Shown here: positions 28,248 through 64,000 of the stretch, piece by piece
How the letters are laid out: every line of letters starts with the position of its first letter
Numbering within the stretch: the stretch's first letter is position 1
Origin: Ignavibacteriales bacterium
GTDB taxonomy: Bacteria > Bacteroidota > Ignavibacteria > UBA10030
Assembly (NCBI GenBank): GCA_016192345.1
Contig: JACPUH010000002.1
Location: forward strand, 8,875-72,874
Reading direction: 5' to 3'
DNA: 64,000 nucleotides
The notes under the pieces: model-generated
Database searches by the model: none
The model's input: the letters and a program-made list of their open reading frames with translations, nothing else
Told to the model about the DNA's origin: nothing
Translations under genes and position numbers: made by a program

Positions 28248-28702
28248 GTGCGGCTCGAAATGATGACTTCATCGGCTTGGATGATGACACGGTATTCATC
28301 CAGCGGCCGCGGTGGAGGGCCGCCCACCACGCGGCCGTTCAAGTCGTATTTGCCATTATGACATGCGCACCAAATCACTCCCGTGTCTTTTCGAAACTGG
28401 ACCGTGCAGTCGAGGTGCGTGCAGGTCGCGGAAAACGCCCGAACCTCTCCCTCGGCCGTCCGAATCATCATTACGGGTTTGTTGCCGAAACGGACGATCA
28501 CCCCACTCTCCTTCTCGATCTCGCTGAGCTTGCCCGCTTTGACGCTCGTGACTTCCACGTCCCCCTGCTTGGGGGGCTTGAGATAGGCAAAAACCGGGTA
28601 GAACACGGCACCCAGCCAGGCGAGAATCCCACCCCCCAGGAGGTATTTCAGAAAATCGCGCTTGCTGTGTTGTGGCTGGTCCAGTGTGGTGGGAGTATCC
28701 AT
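28244..28702 (-). CDS. Rieske [2Fe-2S] subunit
   Basis: Tat-like KRDFLK TM anchor; CTHLDC and CACHNGKY boxes; GPPPRPL; ATGA overlap with cytochrome b. Confidence 0.95.
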
Positions 28703-38862: not shown

Positions 38863-39009
38863 GGGGCAAACCTTTTCGTGAGAGTCGCTGTGAAGGTCAG
38901 CGACATCGACAGTGATATTCAAGTACGACCGACCTTCTCATCCCGGAGATATTGGTTGATCTTTGCACACCATACATCGTCCAAGGCCAACAGCGGGCTT
39001 GTTAAAACA

Positions 39010-44743: not shown

Positions 44744-44822
44744 GAATGCCGTTCCGACCGGAGGAGCGACCCGACATCTCTGTGGGCGCGGTCGGTCCAT
44801 TCCGACGAAAACAATCTAAATT

Positions 44823-45868: not shown

Positions 45869-46330
45869 CTATCCCTCTTTTCCTGCACTCAACGACTGCG
45901 CGATGAGCTCCAGCTTTCCATCGAGCCCTTTTCCCAGTTCGGCGAGCGTCTTCTTCTGCAGCATCGTGAGGATCACCTCTTTCGCACGCTTCCACTGGTC
46001 GTGAACCGGGCAGGGAGTCTGTTCACCACACGCGGGAAATCCAAGGACGCAACCATCGAGGGAAGATTCACCATCCACGGCGCGCACAATGTCGATGAGC
46101 GTGATTTCCTTCGGCGATCGCGCAAGGGCAAACCCGCCATTCGCCCCCTTCCGGGAGACAACGATCCCACCCCGGGTGAGCGTTTGCAGAACTTTGTTGA
46201 GGAAGTGGTAGGGGATGTTGAGATCGCTTGCGATCTCACGGAGATGCTTCCGAGAACCTTCTGGCTGTCGGGCCAGGTAGAGCACCGCCTGAAGGGCGTA
46301 TTCACATGACTTACTGAAGATAATGGACAT
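45869..46330 (-). CDS. Rrf2 family Fe-S transcriptional regulator
   Basis: FSKSCEYALQAVLYLA, GANGGFALA, ITLIDIVRAVDG, CVLGFPACGEQTPCPVH (3 Cys + His). Confidence 0.95.
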   Translation of the reverse strand: MSIIFSKSCEYALQAVLYLARQPEGSRKHLREIASDLNIPYHFLNKVLQTLTRGGIVVSRKGANGGFALARSPKEITLIDIVRAVDGESSLDGCVLGFPACGEQTPCPVHDQWKRAKEVILTMLQKKTLAELGKGLDGKLELIAQSLSAGKEG

Positions 46331-46345
46331 AGCCACGTTTCGCGA

Positions 46346-46439: not shown

Positions 46440-47456
46440 CTATCCTCCAATGGCGACCATGGCCCGGTCACGCAAGCGACTGAGTTCCAGCGGGTCGGGA
46501 CGTTGACCCCATTTTGCACGGACCGCCTCCCCGATGGCAAACTTCAGGGCCTCCGGGCCTTCACCCTGCCGAAGCAAGGAGCGCAAGTCCACCTCCCCGC
46601 GCGCAAACAAGCAGGTCCGGAACCTGCCATCGGCCGTGATCCTTAAACGCGAGCAAGAATGACAGCAAGGTTCCGTGATCGTCGCGATGAACCCCACACT
46701 CCCCCCTCCTCCTCGAACCAAAAATTCCTTTGCCGGACCACGCAGATCATCGGTTGCCTCCACGGGGTCAAGTGCATAACGGATTTCGATCAGCTCACGA
46801 ATCTCACGGCATGAGATCAGGCTCTCCATCGACCAGCCGTTTCCGGAGAAGGGCATGAATTCGATGAAGCGAACATGCACACCCAGGGCATTCGCCAATT
46901 CCACGAAGTCAACAATCTCATCGTCATTGAAGCCGCGAATCATGACACAGTTGATCTTCACGGAATCGAACCCCGCCCTGGTGGCAATCCGGATCCCCTC
47001 CAGCACCGAGTCGAAATTGTCACGCAGGGTGATGCGCTTGAACTTTTCCGGTACAAGCGTATCCAGACTGATGTTGATCTGCGAAACCCCTGCCTCGCGA
47101 AGCCGGCGGGCTTTCTGCTGCAACAGGACACCGTTCGTAGAGAGCGCCAACGTGTTCAAACCTGCGATTCCAGACAATGAAGCGCACAGTTCTTCAACCC
47201 CGGTCCGGACGAGTGGCTCCCCTCCGGTAAGCCTGATTTTTCGGACGCCGAGGCCCACGAACATCACCGCAAGTCGCTCGATCTCCTCGAAAGAAAGCAG
47301 GTGGAGTTTGGGTGTCAGGGGGATGCCTTCCGCCGGCATGCAATACCGGCAACGCAGGTTGCATCGCTCGGTGATCGAAATACGCAGATAATCGTGTCGC
47401 CGCCCGAATGCATCGGTCAATATCGTGGGTACGGAGGACTGCATCGACCAGTTCAC
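46440..47456 (-). CDS. moaA: GTP 3',8-cyclase (molybdenum cofactor biosynthesis)
   Basis: YLRISITERCNLRCRYCM, KIRLTGGEPL, CHSCSRLRITADGRFRTCL, C-terminal IGG; GTG overlaps the actF stop (alternative ATG 47444). Confidence 0.97.
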   Translation of the reverse strand: MNWSMQSSVPTILTDAFGRRHDYLRISITERCNLRCRYCMPAEGIPLTPKLHLLSFEEIERLAVMFVGLGVRKIRLTGGEPLVRTGVEELCASLSGIAGLNTLALSTNGVLLQQKARRLREAGVSQINISLDTLVPEKFKRITLRDNFDSVLEGIRIATRAGFDSVKINCVMIRGFNDDEIVDFVELANALGVHVRFIEFMPFSGNGWSMESLISCREIRELIEIRYALDPVEATDDLRGPAKEFLVRGGGGSVGFIATITEPCCHSCSRLRITADGRFRTCLFARGEVDLRSLLRQGEGPEALKFAIGEAVRAKWGQRPDPLELSRLRDRAMVAIGG

Positions 47457-48640
47457 GTATGAAGATTCAGGCTCTCACCCAGCATCGGGTCCCCAACCGG
47501 GAGGAGGTTTCCCTTCGCAAGGGACTTGAAGACGATCAGGAAGAAGGCAGCCAGGGCGGCAAGGATGGGCCCAAGCTCCCAGAGACCTACTATGGGGTCC
47601 TTCGCCATGAACGGGGGCATGATCATCCAGAACAGATCGATCCAATGCCCGATCATCAAAAAGATGCAGACGCGCAAAAGCACTCCCTCGTGTCGCTTCG
47701 TCCAGATGGGGAGAAGGGCAATGAAGGGGATGACCCAGTTGAAGAGGATGTTCACGATTGTCAGCACTCCCCAACCCCCCTCTTCACGCCGGGCGTAATA
47801 CGTCACTTCTTCCGGTATGTTGGCGTACCAGATGAGAACGTACTGGCTGAACCAGATGTACATCCAGAACGTGCTGAAGGCAAAGATGAGCTTTCCAAGA
47901 TCGTGAAGATGGGAATCGTTGATCACGTTTCGAAACGGACCCATCCGCTTCAGCAGGATGATGACCAGCGTCATGGTTGCGAGACCATTGAGAAAGAGCC
48001 CCGCGAAGTTATAGATTCCGAAGATCGTGCTGAACCAGTGAGGTTCCAGCGACATGATCCAGTCCATACTCGCAAGCGTAAATGTCAGGGCGAAGACAAC
48101 GAGAAACCCCGCCGAGATTTTTCTGTTCGTTCGTGTCAGTTCGAGATCCCCCGAGGCATCCTGCCGCTGCGAACGCTTCACAATGGCCGTGATCATCACC
48201 ATCCAAACGGCGAGGTAGAACACCGAGCGCGCGATGAAGAACGGCTCGTTCAACCAGCCCGACTTGGAATGCAGAATCGGATCGTTCGCCACCACGGCTT
48301 CGTGGCTCCACTCATACAGTGTGTGAATGCCGAGAAAGAGAACAACCAGCAAGAGGCCTGTGACCGGCAGAACCTCGGTCATCGCCTCCGGAATGCGCCG
48401 GAACGAGACGCTCCACCCGGCGTTCGACACATATTGCAACGCCACAAAAAGGCCTCCCGCCAAACCGAGGCTTATAAGGTAATAGGTCGAGAGGAGAACA
48501 TTCGGCCAGGCTCTGTCGGGCGCAGCAAAGATCCCGATGAGGGCGACGGCTGCGCCGATCAGCACAAGGATGGAGAGATTGCGCGCCCATCCCTCTGAAG
48601 GGCGGACGGCAAGCCGGGTCGCGGCGGAAATAGTGCTCAT
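47453..48640 (-). CDS. actF: Alternative complex III subunit F (NrfD-like second membrane subunit)
   Basis: AGWSVSFRRIPEA, WLNEPFFIAR, DWIMSLEPHWFSTIFG, HLHDLGKLIFAFSTFWMYIWFSQY..IWYANIPEE; start at ATG 48640 (ATGA with actE). Confidence 0.92.
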   Translation of the reverse strand: MSTISAATRLAVRPSEGWARNLSILVLIGAAVALIGIFAAPDRAWPNVLLSTYYLISLGLAGGLFVALQYVSNAGWSVSFRRIPEAMTEVLPVTGLLLVVLFLGIHTLYEWSHEAVVANDPILHSKSGWLNEPFFIARSVFYLAVWMVMITAIVKRSQRQDASGDLELTRTNRKISAGFLVVFALTFTLASMDWIMSLEPHWFSTIFGIYNFAGLFLNGLATMTLVIILLKRMGPFRNVINDSHLHDLGKLIFAFSTFWMYIWFSQYVLIWYANIPEEVTYYARREEGGWGVLTIVNILFNWVIPFIALLPIWTKRHEGVLLRVCIFLMIGHWIDLFWMIMPPFMAKDPIVGLWELGPILAALAAFFLIVFKSLAKGNLLPVGDPMLGESLNLHT

Positions 48641-49224
48641 CGGCGGCTCCCCTTCTGTTGTTGCTTCGACTGCCACGATCGAATGTAGGCGAGGACATTC
48701 CAACGGTCCGATCGCGAGACTTGCGAAGCCAGCGAAGGCATGTTCCTCTGTCCGAATGTGACGATATGGTACATCTGTCCATCCTTCATATTCAGTGCGT
48801 TATCTGCAAAGAGGGAGGGAGGAGGAGGAAAGCCCCGTTTGGTGATCACTCCATCCCCCAACCCGGTGGGGCCATGACATGGTTGACACATGGCGGCATA
48901 CACCGCTGCCCCCCGTTCCAGGGCGGCGATATTGGTATCGGCAACAGGACTGGTAAGTTCCCGACCGGCGCGGAGTGCATCTTCAGGAGTGGGTTTGTAT
49001 TCAAAGGGTTCAAACCCCCGTACCACGGTGCCGGGTACGAGCGGCGGACCCACATCCCCCTCCTGCCAGGGCGCCTGCGGCTTGTAGGCGATGGACGAGA
49101 CCATGCCGGGCATGAAGTCGAGATTCCGATGCGTAAAATCGCGTTGGACGAACACGATCATCCCAATCACCACCAGGAGAAGAATCAACAACGATCCGTT
49201 GAGAATCACCCATCCCTTCTTCAT
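48637..49224 (-). CDS. actE: Alternative complex III subunit E (monoheme cytochrome c)
   Basis: N-terminal TM, CQPCHG..G.GDG, FPPPPS, DGQMYHIVTFG..NMPS...RWNVLAYIR. Confidence 0.9.
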   Translation of the reverse strand: MKKGWVILNGSLLILLLVVIGMIVFVQRDFTHRNLDFMPGMVSSIAYKPQAPWQEGDVGPPLVPGTVVRGFEPFEYKPTPEDALRAGRELTSPVADTNIAALERGAAVYAAMCQPCHGPTGLGDGVITKRGFPPPPSLFADNALNMKDGQMYHIVTFGQRNMPSLASQVSRSDRWNVLAYIRSWQSKQQQKGSRR

Positions 49225-49745
49225 ACCCGCTCAATCCTTTCCTCAAGGTCCACAAGATGAAACCGCTCGAAGAGCGATCGTACTTCCTCCACCACGAAGG
49301 AGGCATTGTCCTGGATGAGGACAAGGATGAACCGGTCGTTCGTCGCGCCATCATAGATGAACGCCGGTTTTTTCCCTGGCCAGAGTTTCCTCATTGCCAG
49401 AAAGAGCAACACGGTCCCCACTCCCGCGAACAGGACCATCACCTCAAATGTCACCGGCACAAAGGCGGGGACGGACTTCAACGGCTTGCCCCCGACGTTC
49501 ACCGGCCAACTCGTCGCCGAGGTCCAGATCTGAAACCATAATTTCGCGACAGCCCCTGAAATACCCAGGATAAGCGTGGCCCATGCCAGCCTCGTCGAGC
49601 GCATCCCCATTGCCTTGTCCAAACCATGCACCGCAAACGGCGTATAGGCATCGAGAATGGTATACCCATGCTCACGCGCCGCTTGCGTCGCGGCAAGAAG
49701 ATCGTTTTCATGGGCGAAGGAACTAACCAACAAGCGTCTGCTCAA
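49221..49745 (-). CDS. actD: Alternative complex III subunit D (DUF3341)
   Basis: [21 protein letters not shown]...[22 protein letters not shown]; TTG start. Confidence 0.93.
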
Positions 49746-51141
49746 GCGCTCCCTCCTTTCGTGGTTCCAACGGTTTCAACTCACTCCGGCCCTTCCCGTA
49801 TCGGACGACTCCCTTGACTTCGCCTATGGCGATCATCGGCAGAAAGCGGGCGAAGAGTAGAAAGAGGGTGAAAAAGAGGCCGAAGCTTCCGAGCAGGGTC
49901 GTCAAGTCGATGATCGTCGGCGTGAACCCTGCCCAGCTTGCCGGGAGGTAGTCCCTGGTCAGCGAGGTCATAATGATAACGAATCGCTCGAACCACATAC
50001 CGACATTGATAAGGATGGACAACGCGAAGACGATGCCGGGGTTTCTCCTGATCTTCTTCCACCAGAAAAGTTGGGGGACCATGATGTTGCAACCCACCAT
50101 CACCCAGTACGTCCATCCGTACGGGCCAAGGGCCCTGTTGATAAAGGCAAAGCGTTCATATTCGTTCCCCGAATAATAGGCGACGAAGAGTTCCGTCATA
50201 TAGGCCAACCCGACCATCCCCCCCGTCGCGATGATCACTTTGCACATCTGCTCGATGTGGTGGAGCGTGATGTACTCCTCCAGGTTCATCACCTTGCGGA
50301 CGATCAGCATCAGGGTCAGCACCATCGCAAATCCGGAGAAGACCGCCCCGGCGACGAAATACGGGGGAAGGATGGTGGTATGCCATCCCGGGATGACCGA
50401 GGTGGCAAAATCCCAACTGACGATCGTATGCACGGAGACGACGAGCGGAGTCGCGAGCCCGGCCAGCAGCAGGTAGAGCTTCTCATACCGCTGCCACGTC
50501 CGGTTCGAACCGTCCCAGCCAAAACTGAAGAACCCGAAGAGCTTCTTGCGCAGGGCCGACTTCGTCCTGTCGCGAATGGTCGCCAGGTCGGGAATCATCC
50601 CGACATACCAGAACAGGGCGGAGATCGTCAGGTAGCAACTGATCGCAAACATGTCCCAGACCAGCGGCGAGCGGAAGTTGACCCACAGCGGACCGCGGAA
50701 ATTGGGATACGGAAGGAGCCAATAAGCAAACCATGGCCGGCCGGTGTGGAGGATCGGGAAAATCCCGGCGCATATGACGGCAAAGATCGTCATCGCCTCA
50801 GCCGACCGGTTGACGGAGGTCCGCCATCGCTGCCGGAAGAGAAACAGGATGGCGGAGATCAAGGTCCCCGCATGCCCGATACCGATCCAGAACACAAAGT
50901 TGGTGATATCAAATGCCCATCCAACGGTGTTGTTCAATCCCCACACCCCCACTCCTGTCATCACCTGATAGGCAACCGACAGAGCACCGAGGATCAGGAC
51001 TCCGACGGAGACGATGAACGCAATCCACCAGGAAAGCGACGCTCCCTTCTCGAGCGGCCCGCACACATCATCGGTGATGTCGGCATACGTTTTATTTCCC
51101 AGTACCAGCGGCTGACGGAGCACGGAGAAAACCTCACCCAT
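49723..51141 (-). CDS. actC: Alternative complex III subunit C (quinol-binding, NrfD family)
   Basis: [76 protein letters not shown]. Confidence 0.96.
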
Positions 51142-54139
51142 GGATCCCGGCTCCTTTCTCGTTGGCGGATGGCCTGGATTCAGAGTCTTCTGTGTCCCGA
51201 ACCAGGGTCATATATCCGATGGAAGGACGCACCCCCAGTTCCTCAAGGACTCGATAGAAACGCGGCTCGGTCATGGCTCGTGAAATCCGACTCTCCGGAT
51301 CGTTCATATCTCCGAAGGTGATCGCGTCGGCAGGACACGATTGCTGGCAGGCAGGTTGTATATCACCATCCCTCAGGGAGCGGCCTTCGTTTTTCGCTTC
51401 GATCTTCGCCAGTTGAATACGTTGGACACAGAAACTGCATTTCTCCATCACTCCACGCTCACGGACTGTCACATCGGGGTTCAGCACCATCCGGTGGAGT
51501 TCGTCCCCCCTCGGGTACTCAAACCAGTTGAAGTGGCGAACTTTATAGGGACAGTTGTTGGCACAATACCGCGTCCCGACGCAGCGGTTATAGATCTGCT
51601 GGTTCAATCCCTCCGAATCGTGAACAGTCGCAAGAACCGGACAGACCGTTTCGCAGGGGGCGTTGCCGCAATGCTGGCACATCATGGGCTGGTGGGAAAC
51701 GGACAACTCGCCGTTTTCATTGTCGTAGTACCGGTCGATGCGAAGCCATTGAAGCTCCCGGTTTCTCCCCACTTCATCTTTTCCGACCACCGGGATATTA
51801 TTTTCGGCCTGACACCCGATGACGCACGCCGAACAACCTGTACAGGCAGAGAGGTCGATAGCCATGCCCCATCGATGCCCATCATACTGGTGGTCATCCG
51901 GCCAAAGGGACTCGATCTCATGTTTCCGAAAACTCCCTGCCGATGGATCCTTGGCATAGGCTGCGAACGAAGTTTGCTGGATGATCGGTCGCCTCTCCCC
52001 CGTTCCCCCACCAAGCAGGTCCGGATTGGTCAGCGAATGATACTCCTGCGTCGAAGCGAGGGGATGCTTCCTGCCGGTTTTGGCAATCGTGACACTGAGA
52101 TTCGTGTACGCCAACTCCCCGTTTTCGAACCGAAGAAGCGTTGCAGCGTTCACACCGACAAGCTCCCCCGGCGCGACGGTTGGCTTTGCCTGAAGCCACT
52201 TGGGACCGACGTCGATGAAGCGGTCGGTTCCTTTCCTTCCGTACCCGAGGGCGATGGAAAGAACGCGATCATGCTGGCCCGGCTGAAGATGCGCGGGAAG
52301 CTCCAAACGGCCCTTTTCCTCGGTTTGAATGGTAACCACATCCCCCTCCCCGATCCCCAGGTTCGCCGCCACGGTCTCCGAGATCGACACGTAATTATCC
52401 CAGACGATCTTCGTCACCGGGTCGGCCAATTCCTGAAGCCACGGATTATGAGCGTGCCTTCCGTCCAACATTGTCAACGATGAGTGAAGGACGAGGGCAA
52501 AGGCACCTTCTGCGACCGGTTTGGGACTTGATGAACGTGGATGGAGAGCATCTCTCTTCAGAGACTTGACCTTGACTCCCTGGCCTTCGACCTCGACAAA
52601 TCCATCGTGCAACGTTTTGTTCCAGAATGCCGTGAACGATCGCTCCTGATTCCGCCGTCGAAACACGGAACGCTCCCACTCCTGCCTTATGAGGTCATAG
52701 GCTCCATGCCTCTCTCCCAACCACACGCTCAGGCTTTCTCCGAGAGTACGCGTATCTCTCAACGGCTGAATGGTCGGCTGCGACAGCGAAACGATCCCGG
52801 CAACAGTTTCTGCGTCGTTCCATCGTTCGAGTTCATGGGGTTGCGGCATGACAACGCGGGCAGTCTCCGATGTTTCGTCGACTCGTTCGGCAAAACTCAC
52901 CATAAGCCTGATCCTGGAAAACGCCTCCTTCAAAGCGGTCGAATCGGGAAGGTCGTAGAGAGGATTGACCCCTTCCACAAAGAGTGCTTGAACCGACCCG
53001 GACTGAATTTCGTCAATCAACCGGGTGAGCTCGCCATCATCTCCACGGCACTGGTAAGAGGGATTTTCAACGTCAATGGTCTTCCCGTAGTTGCCGAGAA
53101 GGTCGTTCAGGAGATTGACCTGAACCTGGAGCCCGAGGTCGTTTGTACCGCAGACAATGAGGCTCCTTCCACGGGTCTGCCAGAGTCGATCCGCGATCCC
53201 GGTTAACCTGTTTTCCAGGTGCTCCGCAAGGTTGGGGGAAACTGAATGAGCGGACCTCCCGGCCCTAGAGGAAACAAGAGCGACGAGCCGGGAGGTAACA
53301 AGAGCGACTTCATCAGGGGATACGATGATCCGCTCATCCGCATTGCTGCCGGTCAAAGACAGACGGGATTCGATTTGCGTGTGATGGGAGAATTTCTGCC
53401 CGGAGCCTTCCAGGGAGCGTCCGGCTCTGTATCCTTTCGTGAACTCGACCGGCGAGATCCAGGTCCCGAGGAAATCCGCGTCGAGGCTGACGATGGTTTC
53501 AGCTTGTTCGAACCGGAAACGGGGAAGGAGGCGACTTCCGTGCGTGTACTGATGGGCATCCAGGATGGCCGAAGAAGAGACGGGATCATACTCTCCATGC
53601 CTCCCGTCCTTGAAGGAGGCGAGAAACCGGCCGATGAGCCCCCGCGTTGTCGGACTTGTCACACTCCCCGTAAGGAATCGGACAGCCCCGCCGGAGTTTT
53701 TGATTGCTGCAAGTTCCGTCATGACTTCGGCGTCGACCTGATCCCATGTTGAAGGTGACCCCTTCAGCAGAGGACCATTCAAACGTTGAGAGTCGTAGAG
53801 AGAGACAATAGCCGCCTGCCCAATGGCACACAAACCGCCGCGGGAGACGGGGTGTGCCGGATTTCCCTCAATCTTGATCGGCCTCCCATCGCGGTTCTTG
53901 ACAAGCACGCCGCAACCCGCACTGCACGCACGGCATGTGGAAGCAAACCAGTACGGAACTCCCGGTGTGATCTCCTCCGGCCGAAGGAGATACGGTATCG
54001 CGTTCTCCAGATTCGATTGCTGGCAACCGGCGAGGGCCGTACCGGCAAACGAGAATCCTGCGAGTTTCAGGAACGATCGCCGGCTGAACTCCTGGACCGG
54101 TTCCATCGCTTCATCGTGATCGTGATGTTCGTGGCTCAT
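51134..54139 (-). CDS. actB: Alternative complex III subunit B (Mo-oxidoreductase-fold B1 plus Fe-S B2, fused)
   Basis: Tat RRSFLK...GC; B1 with [10 protein letters not shown]; B2 [37 protein letters not shown] ([3Fe-4S] type), CSFC; start at ATG 54139 with AAAGGGG RBS. Confidence 0.95.
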
Positions 54140-54178
54140 ATCCCCTTTATGCCTTTTATTCCTTGCAGCCATTCTTGT

Positions 54179-54844
54179 TCAATGATGACACACAACACAA
54201 TCGGTGGACGCCGTGACCTTCCTCCCGGTCGATGCCGTCAAACCCGGATCCCGATGGCAGTTGACGCATGAACCCATCGAAAGGGAGGAAACCTGGCGTA
54301 CTCGCTCCATCGTCTCGACATTCCCATGACACGTCTGACACAGAACGCCTGCGTTGACATGCGCACTATGATTGAAATAGACGAAACTCGGAAGACTGTG
54401 CACACGCACCCATGCCACACCGGAGGCCGTTCGGGAAGAGTCGGGTTTCAGTTCGTCATCCAGCCCTGTAGTGGCATAGAGCTTTCGCAATTCGGGAGAG
54501 AAGATACGGCGCGGCGGTCGGTTCTCCTTGGCCGCCTGCTCGTCTTCAGCCCGCACAGAGAGAATCGGCGCGGTGACATGCTTGTGGCAGTTCATGCAGA
54601 CATTCGTGGACGGGATCCCTGCCGTGCGTCCCTTCTCGGCGCCGGTGTGACAATGCAGACACGAGATGCCAAGCTCCCCCGCATGGAGAAGGTGCGAGTA
54701 GGCGATCGGCTGTACCGGCTCAAAGCCCTGGTGATTGTCCGGCAAGCGCATGTTCACCATGAACGAGGTAAGGAACACACTCATGGCCAACAAGACTGCC
54801 ACACCCAATATGACCGACAACAATCGGTTGTTCAGAAATTTCAT
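54179..54844 (-). CDS. actA: Alternative complex III subunit A (pentaheme)
   Basis: One TM; PVQPIAYSHLLHAG, CLHCH, CMNCH, LPSFVYFNHSAHV, CQTCH, SMGSCVNCH, CVVCHH. Confidence 0.93.
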   Translation of the reverse strand: MKFLNNRLLSVILGVAVLLAMSVFLTSFMVNMRLPDNHQGFEPVQPIAYSHLLHAGELGISCLHCHTGAEKGRTAGIPSTNVCMNCHKHVTAPILSVRAEDEQAAKENRPPRRIFSPELRKLYATTGLDDELKPDSSRTASGVAWVRVHSLPSFVYFNHSAHVNAGVLCQTCHGNVETMERVRQVSSLSMGSCVNCHRDPGLTASTGRKVTASTDCVVCHH

Positions 54845-54883
54845 CGTTTCAATCCATCACCAAGTGTTTCCGTCGTAGAGCAA

Positions 54884-55942
54884 TCATCGCGCTCCCTGCA
54901 AACGCGTCCGGGGCTTCAACGCCGTTGAGATGTGATTCATCACTTCCCACGCATTCACAAAAAGCACCAGGATCCCAAGGGCGAGCAATGCGGGGGGATT
55001 CAGCACGGCTTTCATAATCGACGGATGAGGATAGACGTATCCATAGTATGAGCATGCAAAGAACATCCCATAAGTGAAATTTCGTGCGTAGTTGCCAAGC
55101 TGAAAACGGAGCAACGGCTGCTTCCTGTTCGTGATCAAGAATACTTCATAGAGGAGTGATGAAAAAAATAACAGGCTCGTAATCACCCAGGCGGCCTGAA
55201 TCACGAAATGAAAATAAGGAAGAGAGCCCGGCATGTTGTTCTCAATCATTTGGGCTGCCAGCATCGTAATCGACAACGCTCCGTGGGTAATGTTGTTCTG
55301 CGGCACCCAATGCATGAGCGGTTCCACAAATCCCCCGACGACCCACGTCAATGCAAAGGAGATCCAGTAGAAGATGATTCCAAGGACGTTGGCCACAATC
55401 AGCACTGGAAGAAGATCTCCAATAGAGCCGGCGAGGACCGTCATACAACCCACGACAAGCGACTGTGTTGCCACCGTGACGAGGAACACCGTGCCCGTGA
55501 GATTTCCCCCTTTGAGTTCCCCACGCACGACCATCTTCATAAGCCAAACCATGTATACACCACACAAGAGCCAGGCGAGGAGATGAGCGATGATTGCGAC
55601 CGGCGGAACAATCGGATACATCACTACGGCAACGATGTTCATGGCCGCGACCCAGGTTCCCATCCGGAAGTGACCGGGCGAAAAATTCCACAGGACGCGC
55701 ACGTCGAGCCAAAGCTGTGCACCAAAACGGGCCACGACATACAGTGCAAACAGCACAAGGATAATCCCAAACCCGTCAAGAATGGTCCGATCCAGGGGAG
55801 GTTTGAAAAAATGCCCGATGATGTATTTGCCTGGATACAGTAAGAAAACACCAAGTGCCATGAAGATTGCCGGTACACCAATAATCTCCTGTTGCCACGT
55901 TTCAGACACATACCGGAGGGGTGTATTCCTTGCGCTGTTCAT
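54884..55942 (-). CDS. TDT/SLAC1 (tellurite-resistance/dicarboxylate transporter) family anion channel, putative
   Basis: About 10 TM helices; GTVFLVTVATQSL and HGALSITML resemble TDT-family motifs; starts 1 nt after the narK stop. Confidence 0.55.
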   Translation of the reverse strand: MNSARNTPLRYVSETWQQEIIGVPAIFMALGVFLLYPGKYIIGHFFKPPLDRTILDGFGIILVLFALYVVARFGAQLWLDVRVLWNFSPGHFRMGTWVAAMNIVAVVMYPIVPPVAIIAHLLAWLLCGVYMVWLMKMVVRGELKGGNLTGTVFLVTVATQSLVVGCMTVLAGSIGDLLPVLIVANVLGIIFYWISFALTWVVGGFVEPLMHWVPQNNITHGALSITMLAAQMIENNMPGSLPYFHFVIQAAWVITSLLFFSSLLYEVFLITNRKQPLLRFQLGNYARNFTYGMFFACSYYGYVYPHPSIMKAVLNPPALLALGILVLFVNAWEVMNHISTALKPRTRLQGAR

Positions 55943-55943
55943 G

Positions 55944-57281
55944 TCAGAACTCGTCCTGCAGGCTCTGGTTTGACGTTTTCGAAGACGATCCTGCCTCGAC
56001 CGGTTGTTCCCTTGTATACTTCAGGACCCACAGCATGGTCAAGGCAGAGAGCGCCAGGAAGATGAAGATGACAAAGCCGATGGGATAACCCGGCATCCCC
56101 AGATCGCTGACCGCGAACCCCATCGCTAACGGAATCAAGAAGCCTCCAAAGGCTCCGAGACCACCGACCCAGCCGGTGGCACCACCAACGGCCTGCGGAA
56201 CAAGTTGGGGTACCAGTTTGAAAACGGCCGCATTGGAGTTTCCCATGCCAAAGGCCATCAGGATGATACCTGGGATCGCCAGTTGATACTGTTGTGATAT
56301 CGTCATCATGAGGGCACCCATCAACATGATGAGCAGGGCGAGGATCCCTGTATTCTCTCCCCCCTCCCGCAACCGATCGGAAAGAACCCCGCCGCCGATT
56401 CGCACGACAGAGGTCAGAATGGAATAGCCGGCGGTCAACACTCCAGCGACGACGGCATCCATGTGATGAAACTGCGTCCAGTACGTCGGTAACCACGCCG
56501 TAAGGGCAATGAAACCGCCAAAGGTCGTGAAATAGATCGACACCAAGGCCCACGTTTGCCACACCTTGGCAGAGGCTACAAGGCTTTGCCTGATTCCGTT
56601 CAGAGGAAAGAGCTCCTGTCCCTCCCGTCTCGCAAGTTCGCGTGCCTCCGTAGGTGAAATTCCCGCTTTGACGAACTGGAAGTACCACGCGTTACTGCCG
56701 AAGACTGAATACAGAAGGGTCCCCCCGACCAAAACAGAGAGCCAGATCACGTATGCGCCGCTTAACCCTGCACCTGCCACGGCAACGGGAAGCAGGAGCG
56801 TAAACACTCCTGGCGCAACGTTTCCGACGCCGGCGTACACTGCAAGCGCTTTGCCTTGGTGCCGTTGCGGAAACCAGTATGCGACCTGGCTCGCACCAAC
56901 GGAAAACGTGGCGATACCGCAACCCGAGAGTGCACCAAAGAACAGAATCGGGAGATAGAATTCTCTCGTAAGTCCCTCAGGGTACAGTGTGAGAATCATC
57001 ACCGTTAATCCGATCATCCCGACAACGGAAAGGCCGAGCAGGGTCAACATCGGCTTCTTCCCGCCCGTCGTATCCACCCAACCGGAAAAGGGAATCCTGA
57101 GCAGTGAACCGGTCAGTGCAGGGACGGCGATAAGAATCGACACCTCGAGAGAGCTTAGTTCCATCAGCTCCTTCAGCTTCACAGCCGTTGTGCCGAACAG
57201 CGCCACGGCGGCAAACCCAATAAAGAAACCAAGGGTCGCAGCCTTGAGTCCGATATTTGGGTTCCCTTTAGTTCGCGGCAT
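55944..57281 (-). CDS. narK: Nitrate/nitrite MFS transporter (NNP family)
   Basis: GSLLRIP and SVVRIGGG.LSD (two conserved Arg), nitrate signature GCGIATFSVG..QVAYWFP..QG.ALA..AGVGN, GMGNSNAAVFK.VP; start ATG 57281 overlaps the narI stop. Confidence 0.9.
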   Translation of the reverse strand: MPRTKGNPNIGLKAATLGFFIGFAAVALFGTTAVKLKELMELSSLEVSILIAVPALTGSLLRIPFSGWVDTTGGKKPMLTLLGLSVVGMIGLTVMILTLYPEGLTREFYLPILFFGALSGCGIATFSVGASQVAYWFPQRHQGKALAVYAGVGNVAPGVFTLLLPVAVAGAGLSGAYVIWLSVLVGGTLLYSVFGSNAWYFQFVKAGISPTEARELARREGQELFPLNGIRQSLVASAKVWQTWALVSIYFTTFGGFIALTAWLPTYWTQFHHMDAVVAGVLTAGYSILTSVVRIGGGVLSDRLREGGENTGILALLIMLMGALMMTISQQYQLAIPGIILMAFGMGNSNAAVFKLVPQLVPQAVGGATGWVGGLGAFGGFLIPLAMGFAVSDLGMPGYPIGFVIFIFLALSALTMLWVLKYTREQPVEAGSSSKTSNQSLQDEF

Positions 57282-58011
57282 CGGCGAACGCTCCCGGTTC
57301 TGCAACTGAACCTTTTGGTTTCCTTCTGATCCCGTACCACCGCACGACCTGCGGCTTCCGCCAGAGATACGGATTGGGAACGACAAGAATATGAACCAGA
57401 CGGGTAAACGGCGCGAACGCGATCATGGTGTACGCACTCACAATGTGCAGCTTGACCATCCACGGCATCGCTGTGACGTACGTGATATCCGGCGTGAGCG
57501 TGACCAGCGACCAGAGATAGGGAACAGCAAGGGATGCAAACCAGGAGGACCCCCAGCTATGGAAGATCGCAACAGAGAGGCCGCTCAGGATCTGCACGAT
57601 GAAGTTGCCGAAGATCACCCAATCGGCAACACTGGTAACCATCCTGACTTTGCGATCCGTGATACGCCGGATGATGATGCTCACCAATCCGACCATGCTG
57701 AGGAGCGCCGCCATGAAGGCGGATCCCTCCAGAATGTACAACCGGGCCGGGTGGCTGTTCCACCACAGAATCTCACGAGGGACGAGGAAGGCCACCACGT
57801 GTCCGAGGAGAACCACAATAATCCCGTAGTGAAACGGCACAAGCCCCCAGAAGTGATGCTTGTTCTCCAGGAACTGCGACGAGAGACTGGAATAGGTGAA
57901 GCTTTCCGAACGATACCGGCGAATGGAGACGATCAGGAACAGCACCAGCGAGACATAGGGAAAAACGACAAACAGGACGGTGTCCAGCAGGAATGGTCCG
58001 ACGTCAAACAT
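57268..58011 (-). CDS. narI: Respiratory nitrate reductase gamma subunit (cytochrome b)
   Basis: SSLSSQFLE, FHYGII..L.GH, KLHIVS, PFTRLVHIL (four heme b His). Confidence 0.96.
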   Translation of the reverse strand: MFDVGPFLLDTVLFVVFPYVSLVLFLIVSIRRYRSESFTYSSLSSQFLENKHHFWGLVPFHYGIIVVLLGHVVAFLVPREILWWNSHPARLYILEGSAFMAALLSMVGLVSIIIRRITDRKVRMVTSVADWVIFGNFIVQILSGLSVAIFHSWGSSWFASLAVPYLWSLVTLTPDITYVTAMPWMVKLHIVSAYTMIAFAPFTRLVHILVVPNPYLWRKPQVVRWYGIRRKPKGSVAEPGAFADAAN

Positions 58012-58014
58012 GGT

Positions 58015-58563
58015 TCATTCTCCTCCGTGAGAGGTGACGGATTCACATGCCAGGATCCTTACCGACTTCAGCACGTGTTCATACGGGTTGGGATTGACTG
58101 CGAACCCCTCGAGCATTTTATCCAACGCGCGCACCAGCCGCGCCGGGACAAATTCCCGAATCTCCGACTCGTCCATCCTGCCGAGAGCGTGAAGTGCGTG
58201 GGTCAGATGATCCGGCAGTTCGCTCGATTCTTCGATCGCGTACCGGCGGAGAAGGTCCCTCATGTGTACCAGGAACGTCCCGCGTTCGTACGTCTCACCA
58301 TACAGATGCCATCCGACTTCGAGACTGCTGACAGGATTAATGTCGAAGGTCCTCGTATAGAGTTCCTCCAACTCCCCAACGGAGAGCGGTATAACCGCAT
58401 CGGAAAACTGTTGAAGGTGTTCAATCGCACTCTGCCTGCGCTCGGGATCGGGGAACTCCGACGTCCGGAGGGCTTCGAGACACATGGTCAGTCGGGATTT
58501 GTAATCCTCGCGCGGGTAGGCAAGGATCGAAGCCAGGCCATCGAACATGATCGTGTTCTTCAT
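58015..58563 (-). CDS. narJ: Nitrate reductase maturation chaperone
   Basis: LEELYTRTFD, LEVGWHLYGE...RG, ELPDHL; lies between narH and narI. Confidence 0.9.
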   Translation of the reverse strand: MKNTIMFDGLASILAYPREDYKSRLTMCLEALRTSEFPDPERRQSAIEHLQQFSDAVIPLSVGELEELYTRTFDINPVSSLEVGWHLYGETYERGTFLVHMRDLLRRYAIEESSELPDHLTHALHALGRMDESEIREFVPARLVRALDKMLEGFAVNPNPYEHVLKSVRILACESVTSHGGE

Positions 58564-60053
58564 CAGAGTCCTCTTTCGGGGGGTTCCATAAATCCGAAAC
58601 CGACAGCGGTCTTGTGCTCCTGCGGGTCCTTCATCATTTCTATCGCCTCTTCACGGTGCATCGGGGGGATGACAAAACGCTCTTCGAACGTGCAAAGCGA
58701 TGTGAGCTCGTAGATGCGTTCCGCCTCTTCCACCGTGCAGTCGGCTTCACGCAGGATCGCCTCCGCCGTCTTCATCGGGATGTCCCCCACGGTCTTTGCC
58801 CGACGATATACACGGACGGCTTTCTGTTTCTTGAGAGCGTACACGAGCTTCCCCTGGTGTCCCGCGCCAAAGAGATTGGCAAGAAACTGGAGCGGAACCC
58901 TGGCCTGCTCGATATCGTGGAAAAACTCGTCCGAGACACTCGACACGGTGTCGTCATTCCTGTTCGCCATGACCGGGGACATCGGCGGGACGTAGAATAA
59001 CATCGGCAGCGTGCGGTATTCAATATGCGGGGGAAGGGCTATCTTCCACTCCTTGACGAACTTGTACACGGGAGAGTTTTGGGCGGATTCGATGACCGAA
59101 TCGTGAATATTATTCTTCCGGGCTGCGGCAATGACTTCAGGATCATGAGGATCCAGGATCAAGGAACGCTGTCCGTCGATCAGTTGCTCATCCGGGAGCT
59201 TGGCGACTTCCTCAAGACGATCCGCGTCATAGAGCAAAACACCGAGATATCGAATCCTCCCGACGCATGAGTGGAAACACGCCGGCGCCTGTCCCGTTTC
59301 CAGGCGCGGGTAGCAAAGAACACATTTCTCCGACTTGCCAGTCGACCAATTGTAGAACGTTTTCTTATAGGGACAAGCCGCCACGCAAGCGCGCCAGCCA
59401 CGGCAGCGTTTCTGGTCGATCAGCACGATTCCATCCTCCCCCCGTTTGTACAAGGCTCCTGAGGGACAGGAGGCCACACAGCTTGGGTTCAGGCAGTGAT
59501 TACAGATGCGGGGAAAGTAAAAAAGCACCAGGCGTTCCACGGCGGAGAGTTGCTGCCGCTGCTCTTCGCTCAGTCCTTTCAGGTTTGGATCGCTTTCGGC
59601 GTAGATGCGCGACCCTCCAAGGTCGTCGTCCCAGTTCGGGCCGGACTCAACATTGATGTATTCTCCGGTCACCATGGAGACCGGGCGCGCGGTGGGCTGA
59701 TCCGACCCCTCCGGAGCATTGAACAGTTCATCATATTTGTACGTCCACGGCTCGTAGTAGTCGTCCATGCTCGGCATGGAGGGGTTATGGAAGATATTCG
59801 TCACCGTCTTCGCTTTGCTGGTGGATTTGAGCACCAGTTTCCCGTCCCGAAGCTCCCAACCACCACGGTACTTCTCCTGGTCCTCCCACTTCGTCGGGAA
59901 GCCGGTCCCCGGCTTGGTCTCGACGTTGTTCCACCACATGTATTCCGTCCCTTTGCGGTCGGTCCAGATGTTCTTACACGCGATGCTGCACGTGTGGCAC
60001 CCTATGCATTTATCGAGATGGAACACCATGGAAATTTGAGATCGGACGTTCAT
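58563..60053 (-). CDS. narH: Respiratory nitrate reductase beta subunit
   Basis: LDKCIGCHTCSIACKN.WT.R.G.EY.WWNNVETKPG, PRICNHCLNPSCVASCPSGA, CRGWRACVAACPYKK, ACFHSCVGRIRY. Confidence 0.98.
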   Translation of the reverse strand: MNVRSQISMVFHLDKCIGCHTCSIACKNIWTDRKGTEYMWWNNVETKPGTGFPTKWEDQEKYRGGWELRDGKLVLKSTSKAKTVTNIFHNPSMPSMDDYYEPWTYKYDELFNAPEGSDQPTARPVSMVTGEYINVESGPNWDDDLGGSRIYAESDPNLKGLSEEQRQQLSAVERLVLFYFPRICNHCLNPSCVASCPSGALYKRGEDGIVLIDQKRCRGWRACVAACPYKKTFYNWSTGKSEKCVLCYPRLETGQAPACFHSCVGRIRYLGVLLYDADRLEEVAKLPDEQLIDGQRSLILDPHDPEVIAAARKNNIHDSVIESAQNSPVYKFVKEWKIALPPHIEYRTLPMLFYVPPMSPVMANRNDDTVSSVSDEFFHDIEQARVPLQFLANLFGAGHQGKLVYALKKQKAVRVYRRAKTVGDIPMKTAEAILREADCTVEEAERIYELTSLCTFEERFVIPPMHREEAIEMMKDPQEHKTAVGFGFMEPPERGL

Positions 60054-60062
60054 CGAGGTCTC

Positions 60063-63000
60063 CTACCAGATCAGTTCGGGAAGTTTGCGGATCAACACGT
60101 GCGTGTCGCGGTTGCAGCCGGTCGGTCCCCAATAGTTGAAGTGATATGTGAATTGGCCGTACCCTCCCACCATCAGATTCGGTTTGAGGCGCGTTCGCGT
60201 AAGACTGTTGTGCCCGCCGGCTCTGCGGTTGTTTCGAAGAGGCGACTTCGGGACCGAATAGGTGCGTTCGGGAGAATGGTAGATGATGCAGATCCCACGC
60301 GGAATCCTGGCGCTGACGGCGGCACGTGTAACGACGACGCCATGATCGTTGTACACTTCGACCCAGTCGTTATCGTTGATGTTGAGTTCTTCAGCATCCT
60401 TGTCGTTCATCCAGAACGGCTCAATCCCGCGTGACAGGGTCGTCATGCGTTGATTATCGCTGTAGGTGGAGTGGATATGCCATTTGCCGTGAGGGGTCAG
60501 AAAGTTCAGCATTTTGGATTTGCCAGCCTCCGTGGTAAAGCGAAGGTCTGAGTACTGTGTCGGAGACGGCTTCGGCTTGTACGTCGGGAGATGCTCGCCG
60601 AACTGGATATAGCCCGGATGGTCAAGGTAGAAATGCTGGCGGCCGGTGAGTGTCCTCCACGGGACCAGGCTTTCGATATTGTAGGTGAAAGCGGAGTAGG
60701 CGCGTCCGTTTTCGGTGAGCCCGGACCACATCGGGCTGTTCAATAACCGCATCGGAGCCCCCTGCAATCCTTTGTAGCTCACGCGCGTTCCTCTGTTCTT
60801 TTCGGCAAGATGAGCAAGCGGCAGTCCGACCTTCTCCTCCATGTTCTTGTACGACCGGTATGCCAGCTCCCCGTTGGTCACTGTCGCCAGATGCAGGATC
60901 GCATCGCACACCTCGACATCCCGTTTGAGGGAGGGATATGTTTTCCCGTTAAAAGAGGTCGTGGGATGCGTGATCAACATTTGATCATAGAAATCATCGA
61001 TCGCGTATTTTGTCCCATGTGCCCCAAGGCCATTCTGACGAACCAGCGGGCCAAGGGAGATGTATTGGTTGTAGAGATTTTTATAGTCACGCGTCATAAC
61101 GGTGAACTGCGGCATCGTCTTGCCAGGAATCGCTTCGACTTCTCCGGTGATCCAGTCTTTGATCCCGGGCTGGGCGATCTCCGCCGAGGAATCGTGGGCC
61201 AGCGCCGTGGCAACGATGTCCTTTACCGGTTCCGGAAAATGATGGGAAGCCAGCTCGGAGAATTTTTTCGCGACAGCTTTGAAAATATCCCAGTCACTCT
61301 TCGATTCCCAGCATGGGGGAACGGCGGCGGACAAGGGATGAATGAAACTGTGCATATCGGTCGAGTTCAGGTCTGCCTTCTCGTACCACGTCGCCGCCGG
61401 AAGGACGATATCCGAGTACAAGGCTGAAGTATCCATCCGGAAGTTCAGATCGATCACAAGATCCATTTTCCCGTGTGGGGCAATTTCATGCCAGACCACT
61501 TCCTTGACGGAATCCTTTGCCATATCCTCGGCAACGGCATTGTCATGGGTCCCGAGATAATGCCGGAGGAAGTACTCATGCCCCTTGCTACTCGCCATCA
61601 AGGCATTGCCTCGCCAGATGAACCAAACCCGCGGCCAGTTTTCCTTTGCGTCGGGATCCTCGACTGAGAATTTCAACTTCCTTGATTTCAGGTCCTCGAC
61701 GGTCTTGTGGACGATCTGATCGTTCGTCGTTGCCCCGGCCTCCTCAGCCTCTTTGACAAGGTCGATGCTGTTCTTGGGGAACTGCGGGTAGAACGGAAGC
61801 CAGCCGTTTCGCACGGCCTTGACCTGCACATCCATCGTATGCCCGGAGGCAAGCGATCCCTGTTCCTGCTTCGCCGGCACGGTGTGATAATCCGTAAATC
61901 CTCTCTCGTACCGCCATTGGTCTGTATGGACGTAGTGCCAGCTCGGTGCATTTTGTTGACGGGATGCAGGATACCAATCCTTCGCGAACGCAATCGCTCC
62001 CCACGGCTCTCCCGGGGCAAGTTTCTCCTGGCCGACGTAGTGTCCCAGTCCGCCACCGTTGACGCCGATGCAGCCGCAAAACATCAACGCGTGGATGCCG
62101 GCCCGGTACATCAGATTGGCATGATACCAGTGGTTGATGCCCGCGCCGATGATGATGGTGCATTTGCCGTTCGTGTGTTCGGCTGTGCTCCCCCATTCCC
62201 GCGCAAACCTGATCAGGTCCTTCCTTCCGATACCCGTGTATTTTTCCGTCCATGCCGGGGTATACGGCCGTTCTTCATCGTCGTAGCCGGTCGGATAGTC
62301 ACCCTCAAGCCCGCGGGCGACGCCGTATTGAGCCATCAGCAGGTCGTACACGGTCGCAACTGTCACCGACGTACCGTCGGCCGTCGTGATCGTCGTTACC
62401 GGCACGTGCCGAACCAGGCTCGCGGCATCCGCAAAATTGTCGAACCGGACCGGAACCGATGCTCTGGTGGTTTCCAGAAATGTAATTTCGGGTGTGATCT
62501 CGGTTCCGTCCAGACCGTCTTTCAGAAGCAGGTTCCATTTTCCCTTCTCCGTACCCCACCGATCCCCGACACTCCCCAATGGCATCTTGGGCTTTCCTTC
62601 CTTCGCATCCCACATCAGGAATTTCCATTCGCCATGCTCGACATCTTTGTATTGCTCGAGCCGGTTGGCGCGAAGCATTTGGCCGGCCTCATACACTCCC
62701 CCCTCCTGCTTCAATTCCACGAGGTAGGGAGCGTCGGTGTATTTCTTCGTGTAATCGAGGAAGTACGGAACCTTTTTTTGGTGATGGAATTCCGTCAGAA
62801 GTACGTGATTGACCGCCATCCACCACGCTCCATCCTGTCCCGCGTTGATGGAGACCCAGTGATCTGCGTATTTTGCGACCTGGTTGAAATCCGGAGCGAA
62901 AACGTACATCTTCGTTCCATTATGGCGGGCCTCTGCGGCAAAGTGAACATCCGGAGTCCGCGTCATATTCAGATTCGACCCCATCACCGCGAGCAGTTTG

Positions 63001-63707
63001 GCGTTGTACCAGTCGGCAGACTCCTGCACATCGGTCTGCTCCCCCCAGGTTTCCGGCGAGGCGGAAGGAAGGTCACAATACCAGTCGTAGAAAGAGAGGG
63101 AGACACCCCCCAACAACTGCATCAGGCGTGCGCCGGACGCATAACTCACCATCGACATGGCAGGGATCGGAGAGAACCCTGCAATACGATCGGGGCCGTG
63201 CGCCTTGATGGTGTGAACATTGGCCGCCGCGATGATCTCCAGTACTTCATCCCACGTTGTACGGCGGAATCCCCCTTTCCCGCGTGCCCGTTGCCAGCGT
63301 TTTCGGTATTCCTGTTTCGTCACCAGCGATTTCCATGCCTCCACCGGATCCTCAAATTCCACGCGAGCTTTTCTCCAGAGATCGAGCAGAGCGCCGCGGA
63401 TATAGGGATACTTCACGCGAAGCGGGCTGTAGAGATACCAGGAGAACGAGATACCGCGTTGGCAACCGCGCGGTTCATACGGGGGCAGACCATGCTCGAG
63501 GGATGGGTAATCAAGCCCCTGCATCTCCCATGTGACGATGCCGTCCTTCACATGAATCATCCAGGTGCAACTGCCGGTGCAGTTGACGCCGTGCGTGCTT
63601 CGCACAACCTTGTCGTGTTGCCAGCGATTGCGATAGAATTCCTCCCATCCGCGCAGAAGAGGATTCTCTTCGTCTTTGATCCAGTGAATCTTCTGTGTGT
63701 CGCTCAT
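60063..63707 (-). CDS. narG: Respiratory nitrate reductase alpha subunit (cytoplasmic, no Tat signal)
   Basis: [11 protein letters not shown] (FS0), YSWYLYSP-like [17 protein letters not shown] (Mo-ligand Asp), [31 protein letters not shown]; 1214 aa. Confidence 0.97.
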
Positions 63708-64000
63708 GCGTTACTCTCCAGTTGACGTTCTTGAACCAGGGGCCGACGTACGGCCCGAAAGCGTTTGTTCCACACCACATCGAAGACCCCGAGCACAATG
63801 AGTGTTCCCGCGAGGCCGATGAGAATGAAATTCAGGCGGGCGGTAGATGCATCTTCGGGGTTGCGAGTGAGGGTGTGCTGAAAATAGGCAACGAGGCTGA
63901 GGATCTCCTCGGATTCGAGCGGTTCCTTCCTGAAGACTGATTGCATCGTGGGCGTGGCCGGGGCGGAGAGCCAGATGGAGAGCGCCTTGCGCCCCTGATA
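63704..64000 (-). CDS. narC: NarC-like membrane-anchored cytochrome c, C-terminal part (runs off the right edge)
   Basis: Open frame from 64000: ...[31 protein letters not shown] + TM helix + basic tail, a class I cytochrome c C-terminus like Thermus NarC; ATGA overlap with narG. The heme motif itself is outside the window. Confidence 0.6.

Follow-up and report, generated by a model that had tools for sequence, protein, structure and literature searches.

The DNA considered here is a stretch of 64,000 nucleotides (nt) of contig JACPUH010000002.1 from an Ignavibacteriales bacterium (assembly GCA_016192345.1, positions 8,875 to 72,874), hereafter called the window, which belongs to a groundwater metagenome organism. 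On its minus strand, from the window end down to position 46440, it carries the genes of a nitrate reductase (nar) followed by the six act genes of an alternative complex III (ACIII) and by moaA. It is the relation of this ACIII to nitrate respiration that is analysed in the following. The genes of the run are, in reading order:

64000-63704, minus strand: narC fragment, the C-terminal 98 codons, cut by the window end
63707-60063, minus strand: narG (TIGR01580, 1498.5 bits against a cut-off of 1084)
60053-58563, minus strand: narH (TIGR01660, 655 bits against a cut-off of 524)
58563-58015, minus strand: narJ (PF02613, 33.1 bits against a cut-off of 22.2)
58011-57268, minus strand: narI (TIGR00351, 117.4 against a cut-off of 105.6; 1Q16_C, 1.8e-20)
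57281-55944, minus strand: narK-type MFS nitrate/nitrite transporter (PF07690, 1.8e-27; TIGR00886, 9e-43, under the cut-off)
55942-54884, minus strand: 'TDT'-like gene encoding 352 amino acids (aa), TehA/SLAC1 fold according to a structural model
54844-54179, minus strand: actA (five CXXCH motifs; PF14522 and QrcA-like matches)
54172 or 54139 to 51134, minus strand: actB (Tat motif RRSFLK; Molybdop_Fe4S4, Fer4_7/11)
51141-49723, minus strand: actC (6BTM_C, 3.7e-190; 6F0K_C, 3e-186; PF03916)
49745-49221, minus strand: actD (TTG start; PF11821, 3.1e-49)
49224-48637, minus strand: actE (one CXXCH motif; PF13442, 4e-14)
48640-47453, minus strand: actF (6F0K_F, 4.2e-72; 6BTM_F, 4.4e-65)
47456 (GTG) or 47444 (ATG) to 46440, minus strand: moaA, GTP 3',8-cyclase of molybdenum cofactor synthesis (TIGR02666, 353.9 against 284)

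The sequence-only reading of this DNA had described one run from narC to moaA with gaps of at most 39 nt and without a terminator, and both the coordinates and a signal scan agree with this description. From narC through moaA, neighbouring genes either overlap or are separated by no more than 39 nt. The TGA of narC shares an ATGA with the start codon of narG, gaps were found between narG and narH (9 nt), narJ and narI (3 nt), narK and the TDT-like gene (1 nt) and the latter and actA (39 nt), and narH overlaps narJ by 1 nt. The overlap of narI and narK is 14 nt with the likely narK ATG at 57281, a start that agrees with the called narK length of 445 aa in relatives. Depending on the actB start (54172 or 54139), actA and actB are separated by 6 or 39 nt, and overlaps of 8 nt (actB/actC), 23 nt (actC/actD), 4 nt (actD/actE) and again 4 nt (actE/actF) follow. 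The reported overlap of actF with moaA, the final gene of the tightly spaced run, depends on the start codon as well, because GTG 47456 gives a 4-nt overlap and ATG 47444 an 8-nt gap. The 5' end of the operon lies beyond the window, and a search for records reaching further upstream of narC turned up no NarG identical to that of the window. A consensus scan, outside which other promoter types lie, found no sigma-70-like or terminator-like site in the intergenic gaps, including the 39-nt gap before actA that the earlier reading had singled out for such a site; its matches were all situated inside genes and their totals were about those of shuffled sequence. The RNA of this gap even folds worse than its own shuffles (z = +1.3). 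No RNA sequencing runs with the window sequence were found; matches came only from DNA metagenomes of groundwater, soil and sediment.

The six consecutive act genes (54844-47453) stand in the canonical order actA-B-C-D-E-F, and all six products match solved ACIII subunits or ACIII families. ActA is a pentahaem cytochrome c with an N-terminal anchor (transmembrane helix 8-26), ActE a membrane-anchored monohaem cytochrome c (transmembrane helix 6-24), and ActB a fused molybdopterin-like and iron-sulfur (Fe-S) protein with a twin-arginine translocation (Tat) signal, the cofactors of which are predicted by sequence; homologues of ActB are numerous (5257 at E<=1e-50). ActC and ActF are NrfD-type polytopic proteins homologous to each other, with ActF also weakly matching ActC chains, and ActC is the membrane subunit predicted to interact with quinol. 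ActD reaches 167 bits with PF11821, the cut-off of which is 25.7. Subunits, gene order and haem counts are the same as in the characterised ACIIIs, to which the similarity is very high. The homology identifies the six genes as a complete ACIII, as had been claimed before, with a predicted function as quinol:cytochrome c oxidoreductase. The related NrfD-type complex Qrc (QrcABCD), the menaquinone reductase of sulfate reducers, is matched as well, ActA resembling QrcA and ActB the QrcB- and QrcC-like models. However, these matches are far under the cut-offs, the window additionally encodes ActD, ActE and ActF, and the matches in the PDB are ACIII.

The difference from the characterised complexes is found in the genomic context. 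A linkage to caa3/cbb3 oxidases or to photosynthesis is usual for ACIII, even if not defining, and ACIII is treated as oxidase-linked in the literature (PMC3362086). In the window, however, the context is narC-narGHJI, and neither actG nor an oxidase gene lies near the act genes. COX1 and COX2 are absent from the window and likewise from 15 nar-linked loci that are described below. The claim that no oxygen reductase is present also stood, in that no haem-copper oxidase was detected in the 64 kb by Pfam searches of the large minus-strand open reading frames and by tblastn with COX1 and COX2, a search without a cytochrome bd query.

In line with what the sequence-only reading had assumed, no characterised nar-linked ACIII was found in the open literature searched, outside which the ACIII reviews of Refojo (2010/2012) lie. 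The arrangement itself has been reported, however, without being recognised as an ACIII. Suarez et al. (2023; PMC10732223) described, for 13 metagenome-assembled genomes (MAGs) of Planctomycetota and KSB1, an NrfD-containing cluster of six genes situated downstream of putative Nar genes. The cluster comprised a 5-haem cytochrome, a 4Fe-4S/molybdopterin protein, NrfD, actD, 'ccoP' and a 'quinol:cytochrome c oxidoreductase subunit 2'; the authors could assign it to no complex described so far and proposed a role as nitrite reductase or in electron transport. Judged by the published description, this is the same arrangement as in the window, and the cluster published as an unknown complex is re-assigned here, by homology of the subunits encoded in the window, as a full ACIII of a nar-linked, NarC-paired clade, which was previously glimpsed but misread in one MAG study. 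The position downstream of nar would indeed suit a nitrite-consuming enzyme (PMC10732223), as expected for a new NrfAH-like membrane-bound nitrite reductase. But each of the six products has a close homologue among the solved ACIII subunits, the haem counts are ACIII-like (five in ActA, one in ActE) and neither of these two proteins has the NrfA domain PF02335, while a genuine NrfA is encoded nearby. Contradicted by these subunit matches, haem counts and the neighbouring NrfA, the published nitrite reductase reading was rejected, and we regard it as extremely unlikely.

The survey of other genomes and metagenomes revealed that the linkage is conserved in several phyla. On approximately 30 independent contigs narC-narGHJI was found with actABCDEF directly after it (L001-L004, L007, L008, L011-L014, L018, L076, L087-L091, L093 and 13 further metagenome contigs). 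The carriers include uncultured Ignavibacteria/KSB1-like bacteria, Acidobacteriota and Planctomycetota from soil, sediment and groundwater; the MAGs with nar-linked loci are labelled Bacteroidia, Solibacteraceae, Terriglobales, Thermoanaerobaculia, Blastocatellia and Planctomycetota. Among the six closest ActB relatives (90, 78, 72, 66, 63 and 62% identity), five have narGHJI immediately before actA, and the contig of the remaining one (72%) stops just upstream of actA. A scan at one genome per species yielded 80 ACIII loci, which were compared with the window proteins. All informative loci with at least 46% ActB identity are nar-linked, except L035 (46%), and one more nar-linked locus was found at 40%. 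When the search was started from NarC in metagenomes instead, all 14 contigs with sufficient sequence beyond narI contain act genes, while among the remainder four contigs stop inside a second MFS gene and the others are too short. In the Acidobacteriota the order is rrf2-narC-narGHJI-actABCDEF-narK, so that the ACIII is embedded in nar genes there too by its position between narI and narK. One locus appears disrupted: in L169 (14458-20772) the narH match ends after 81 residues and is followed by approximately 5.4 kb of unrelated DNA and then actB, which may represent an insertion or rearrangement inside the nar-act operon.

The association with nar is furthermore exclusive with regard to oxidases. 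Among 89 ACIII loci, nar linkage was found in 15 and COX linkage in 50, and no locus has both, with oxidase linkage scored by COX1 and COX2 queries from a Mucilaginibacter locus. A tree of ActC alone gave weak clade support (49-71%), which made the concatenation of ActB, ActC and ActF necessary; in the neighbour-joining tree of these three proteins (1812 columns) a single, separate clade of the nar-linked ACIIIs was recovered in 89 of 100 bootstraps. The ACIII of the exceptional locus L035 is the sister of this clade. This locus has a NarI-like gene (4151-5122) directly upstream of actA and no NarGH, and in its NarI-like protein two of the four haem ligands are replaced (H56 to Q, H205 to T). 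Moreover, L142 (742-5176, minus strand) and L143 contain a second, divergent ACIII head-to-head upstream of the narC of a nar-act operon, the ActB and ActC of which are 36% and 59% identical to those of the window. Judged by these sequences, some organisms have two ACIII types, and such a second ACIII as in L142 is to be expected if the nar-linked one is a dedicated paralogue. Taken together, gene order and phylogeny show the nar-linked ACIII as a distinct subfamily, co-inherited with narC-narGHJI and a nitrate-linked paralogue of the oxidase-linked ACIII. Because of the conservation, the exclusivity towards oxidase linkage and the phylogeny, the predicted dedication of this ACIII to nitrate rather than oxygen respiration is well supported.

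These same data bear on the assumption that the act genes are neighbours of nar without being coupled to it, i.e. that an ordinary complex III moved horizontally together with nar and serves aerobic respiration via an oxidase encoded elsewhere. The clade does cross phyla, which suggests that the block was transferred as a unit, and the data consist of loci and not of whole genomes, so oxidases could be encoded at other places. Against this, spacing and order are kept despite deep divergence (ActB identity down to 40-46%), the Acidobacteriota have the ACIII between narI and narK, oxidase-linked members number zero in the clade against 50 outside, and L142 has a separate second ACIII. Hence, we consider such a coincidental adjacency very unlikely.

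Of the nitrate reductase, the alpha subunit NarG, the beta subunit NarH and the dihaem b membrane subunit NarI each exceed the NCBIfam equivalog cut-offs, and the predicted assembly chaperone NarJ passes the PF02613 cut-off, while staying with 43.8 bits under the 59.35 of TIGR00684. The N-terminus of NarG has the FS0 motif H-x3-C-x3-C and no RR motif, as in the cytoplasmic type without a Tat signal. In NarI all haem ligands (H56, H66, H187 and H205) are kept, and the column of the quinol-site residue K86 of E. coli NarI is occupied by an Arg that is invariant across the NarI sequences of the nar-act operons. A loss of the NarI quinol site in these operons was ruled out by the four His ligands and the retained basic residue; with both in place, Nar has no obvious need for ACIII.

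Of NarC the window contains the C-terminal 98 residues with one transmembrane helix, the membrane anchor, and a search with this fragment gave six short matches only. Full-length NarC proteins from relatives (L012, L014, L090, L091 and L093) have a signal sequence, two CXXCH motifs and a C-terminal transmembrane helix. The relatives' proteins align to NarC of Thermus over 73-86% of the length with 28-30% identity. In a tblastn search of full-length NarC against plasmids, the only full-length matches were the c-type cytochrome genes immediately upstream of narG on Thermus megaplasmids. In Thermus, NarC is a membrane-anchored periplasmic cytochrome c and a structural subunit of Nar (PMC10609526). 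All nine loci in which the DNA upstream of narG is visible (window, L001, L003, L012, L014, L089, L090, L091 and L093) have narC before narG. A close counterpart is the megaplasmid-encoded NarCGHI of Thermus thermophilus (narCGHJIK), which shares the dihaem, C-terminally anchored cytochrome c directly before narG, the following narGHJI with an MFS transporter and the presence of a dedicated respiratory module beside the nar operon. It differs in that this neighbouring module is the electron-input dehydrogenase Nrc and not an ACIII, and in the low NarC identity of approximately 28-30%.

Between narK and actA lies the gene that had been labelled 'TDT', and for this label the outcome was mixed. 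The sequence gave no match in Pfam (even at E<=10), NCBIfam or the PDB, neither as a single sequence nor as a profile. An AlphaFold2 model built with 48 sequences (predicted local distance difference test 92.7, predicted template-modelling score 0.91), however, shows the ten-helix TehA/SLAC1 fold, and the first 23 structures retrieved with Foldseek are without exception anion channels of the TehA or plant SLAC1/SLAH kind (template-modelling scores 0.53-0.74); the assignment to TehA/SLAC1 has scores of 0.59-0.74 and a probability of 1.0. To the TDT family proper (TehA/SLAC1, PF03595) the likeness is thus one of the fold, while the identity is only approximately 13%. The family consists of approximately 70 clusters annotated as hypothetical, with PF03595 found on one remote homologue only, and its members occur mainly between narI/narK and actA. 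In L091 the gene likewise lies between narK and actA, in L093 (10001-11101) it takes the place of narK between narI and actA, and in L094 (10001-11005) a distant member adjoins an assimilatory-type molybdopterin oxidoreductase. This gene context supports a role in nitrate/nitrite transport. SLAC1-type channels conduct nitrate. The protein is probably a divergent TehA/SLAC1-fold nitrate/nitrite channel, and its family suggests that the TehA/SLAC1 channel superfamily has a new branch linked to nitrate. In L090 (8001-9623), and on four contigs altogether, an in-frame fusion joins the TDT-like protein with a complete pentahaem ActA; the product has 540 aa, and the operon order is narC-GHJI-[TDT-ActA fusion]-actBCDEF. 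Products of the nar side and the act side can therefore share one polypeptide. Such an additional TehA/SLAC1-fold protein in some nar-act lineages, once fused to ActA, is a further difference from the characterised ACIIIs.

Our preferred reading, to which we give an even chance, is that of one nitrate-respiration supra-operon, in which a Thermus-type NarC-NarGHI with its partner NarJ, NarK, the channel, a nitrate-dedicated ACIII and moaA are combined, and in which the ACIII passes menaquinol electrons to NarC. Menaquinol would be oxidised by ActC at the periplasmic face, and the electrons would travel via the Fe-S clusters of ActB and the haems of ActA to the monohaem ActE. ActE would then reduce the membrane-anchored dihaem NarC, from which the electrons could proceed to the haems of NarI and via NarH and NarG to nitrate. 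NarC would thereby take the role that the fused cytochrome c domain has when ACIII is paired with caa3. Provided that ACIII is a proton pump, the energy conserved on this path would come on top of the 2 H+/2e- that the redox loop of NarI yields. Both the identity of the acceptor and the energy gain are what we infer here; the nar-act pairing would possibly represent a more energy-efficient electron route to nitrate.

The sequence-only reading had dedicated the ACIII to nitrate as well as nitrite respiration, with NrfA, besides NarC, as a possible acceptor. Genes for nitrite reduction indeed follow after moaA, where gaps of 103-143 nt lie before genes for an Rrf2 regulator, a YwiC-like protein, NrfH, NrfA and a hemerythrin:

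45869-46336, minus strand: Rrf2-family regulator (PF02082, 1.2e-34), after a gap of 103 nt behind moaA
44944-45762, minus strand: YwiC-like membrane protein (PF14256, 8.5e-17)
44105-44800, minus strand: nrfH, tetrahaem quinol dehydrogenase for NrfA (TIGR03153, 152 against 134; four CXXCH motifs)
42613-44091, minus strand: nrfA, ammonia-forming cytochrome c nitrite reductase (NF008339, 626.9 against 595; PF02335, 2e-176)

In a relative with 78% ActB identity (L003/L004, 19492-21720) a gene for a quinol-type nitric oxide reductase (qNor), a NorB with a cytochrome c-like N-terminal domain, lies between ywiC and nrfH; it is absent from the window. With regard to the regulator, the cut-off is reached with the model of the Rrf2 superfamily alone, while the models of the SUF regulator, IscR, RirA, CymR and NsrR stay under theirs, NsrR being weaker. 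In L012, L014, L091, L093 and many metagenome loci rrf2 is found immediately upstream of narC as the usual head of the operon, and a second rrf2 copy may lie beyond the window end. Furthermore, a gene for an outer-membrane porin of the Alginate_exp family was found repeatedly, either shortly downstream of actF or narK or in the vicinity of nrf (L005, 11431-12696; L007, 16738-18048; L014, 18040-19563; L091, 18680-19954), and it may encode an outer-membrane nitrate/nitrite porin.

The nitrite side is central for another view, in which the ACIII is a general quinol:cytochrome c oxidoreductase for the anaerobic respiration of nitrogen oxides that feeds periplasmic NrfA, Nir, cNor or NosZ, with NarC being no acceptor or an outward relay, and in which act is co-expressed with Nar since nitrate reduction yields nitrite. 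ACIII has been proposed elsewhere as a general donor to periplasmic reductases, including those of N-oxides (PMC5317091; PMC9270275). In the window and its close relatives nrfHA follows the operon, in L003 and L004 the qNor gene is inserted, and NarI seems self-sufficient for quinol oxidation. On the other hand, the flanks of L007, L008, L011-L014, L076, L088, L089, L091 and L093 are without nrfHA, NrfA has its own quinol dehydrogenase in NrfH, qNor is independent of cytochrome c, and neither nir nor nos occurs in the annotated flanks of the nar-act loci; narC-narGHJI is the sole constant partner. Periplasmic acceptors could moreover be served by a Rieske/cytochrome b complex that the window codes for. 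We regard a role as general donor as possible, if clearly short of an even chance. From the sequences, NarC fits better than NrfA as acceptor of the ACIII, because it is present in every nar-act locus with visible DNA upstream of narG, and NrfA fits worse because nrfHA is found only near the close relatives of the window and NrfA has the adjacent NrfH. The earlier proposal is partly supported: its core, a role in nitrate rather than oxygen respiration, is strongly backed by the approximately 30 contigs, the absence of loci with both linkages and the single clade.

Several points speak against the supra-operon with NarC as the electron acceptor. NarI likely is competent for direct quinol oxidation, judged by its conserved residues, and the ACIII route would therefore probably be a parallel branch beside NarI and not the sole path. 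The transfer from c-type haem to the haem b of NarI is perhaps uphill if the potentials are like those of E. coli, and in 2008 Cava et al. reportedly proposed for Thermus a flow in the reverse sense, in which NarC passes electrons from Nar on to other reductases. For ACIII, the pumping of protons itself has not been firmly quantified. Furthermore, every nar-act organism is known from MAGs or metagenome contigs; a cultured carrier was not found, the members of the cluster having MAG names only. The trees are neighbour-joining trees and the oxidase-linked sample consists mostly of Bacteroidota. The most far-reaching version, in which a proton-translocating ACIII, NarC-NarGHI and the TehA/SLAC1-type channel form a nitrate 'respirasome' that conserves more than 2 H+/2e-, is put forward tentatively and seems rather doubtful to us.

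The remaining part of the window contains further redox modules. A second quinol-oxidising complex is encoded between 25696 and 30203 on the minus strand, at a distance of approximately 18 kb from the ACIII. It comprises a Rieske protein (28244-28702) as well as a cytochrome b (27168-28247), and a NapC/NirT-like multihaem cytochrome and a further multihaem cytochrome c lie on its flanks. A split complex resembling Qrc or ACIII is encoded at 13475-23995 on the minus strand, with every match under the curated cut-offs; it consists of a QrcA-like cytochrome, an 816-aa QrcB/ArrA-like molybdoenzyme, a QrcC-like Fe-S protein, an NrfD/DsrP-like protein and a c554-like cytochrome, and is followed by multihaem cytochromes, several of them with an MtrC-type domain. 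Also on the minus strand, at 33817-38922, lie genes for a 759-aa fusion of a multihaem cytochrome with cytochrome b561, a 664-aa multihaem cytochrome and a separate cytochrome b561, and a CcmF-like haem lyase is encoded in the window as well. According to its predicted gene content, the window is a respiratory island. With the Rieske/cytochrome b pair and the other modules present, the ACIII is not the sole quinol-oxidising module, which fits a specialised role.

This richness in multihaem and MtrC-domain cytochromes would also suit an ACIII working in reverse, either as a cytochrome c:menaquinone reductase for Nar, for example with Fe(II) donors via multihaem cytochromes, or with Nar acting as nitrite oxidoreductase and the ACIII serving reverse electron flow. 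Published work discusses ACIII for Fe(II) oxidisers. The order cytochrome c-narG-H-J-I-narK-TDT presumably resembles that of the nxr locus of Nitrobacter. However, NarG scores as a NarG equivalog, the operon has nrfHA and a regulator of the Rrf2 family as neighbours and no oxidase close to it, and the multihaem clusters are not kept beside the nar-act loci of other lineages. We also know of no ACIII for which reverse operation has been shown. An operation in this direction is hence regarded as unlikely.

NarGHI is the textbook example of a simple redox loop, and to our knowledge ACIII is known only with oxygen reductases or photosynthetic reaction centres as partners. If the ACIII of the window and its relatives indeed serves NarC-NarGHI, nitrate respiration would gain a coupling site or at least a dedicated electron branch, and research on ACIII would gain a second natural partner complex. 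Estimates of growth yield would then change for nitrate reducers and for organisms performing dissimilatory nitrate reduction to ammonium in soil, sediment and groundwater. Should even the 'respirasome' exist, widespread soil and groundwater bacteria would conserve more than 2 H+/2e- on nitrate.

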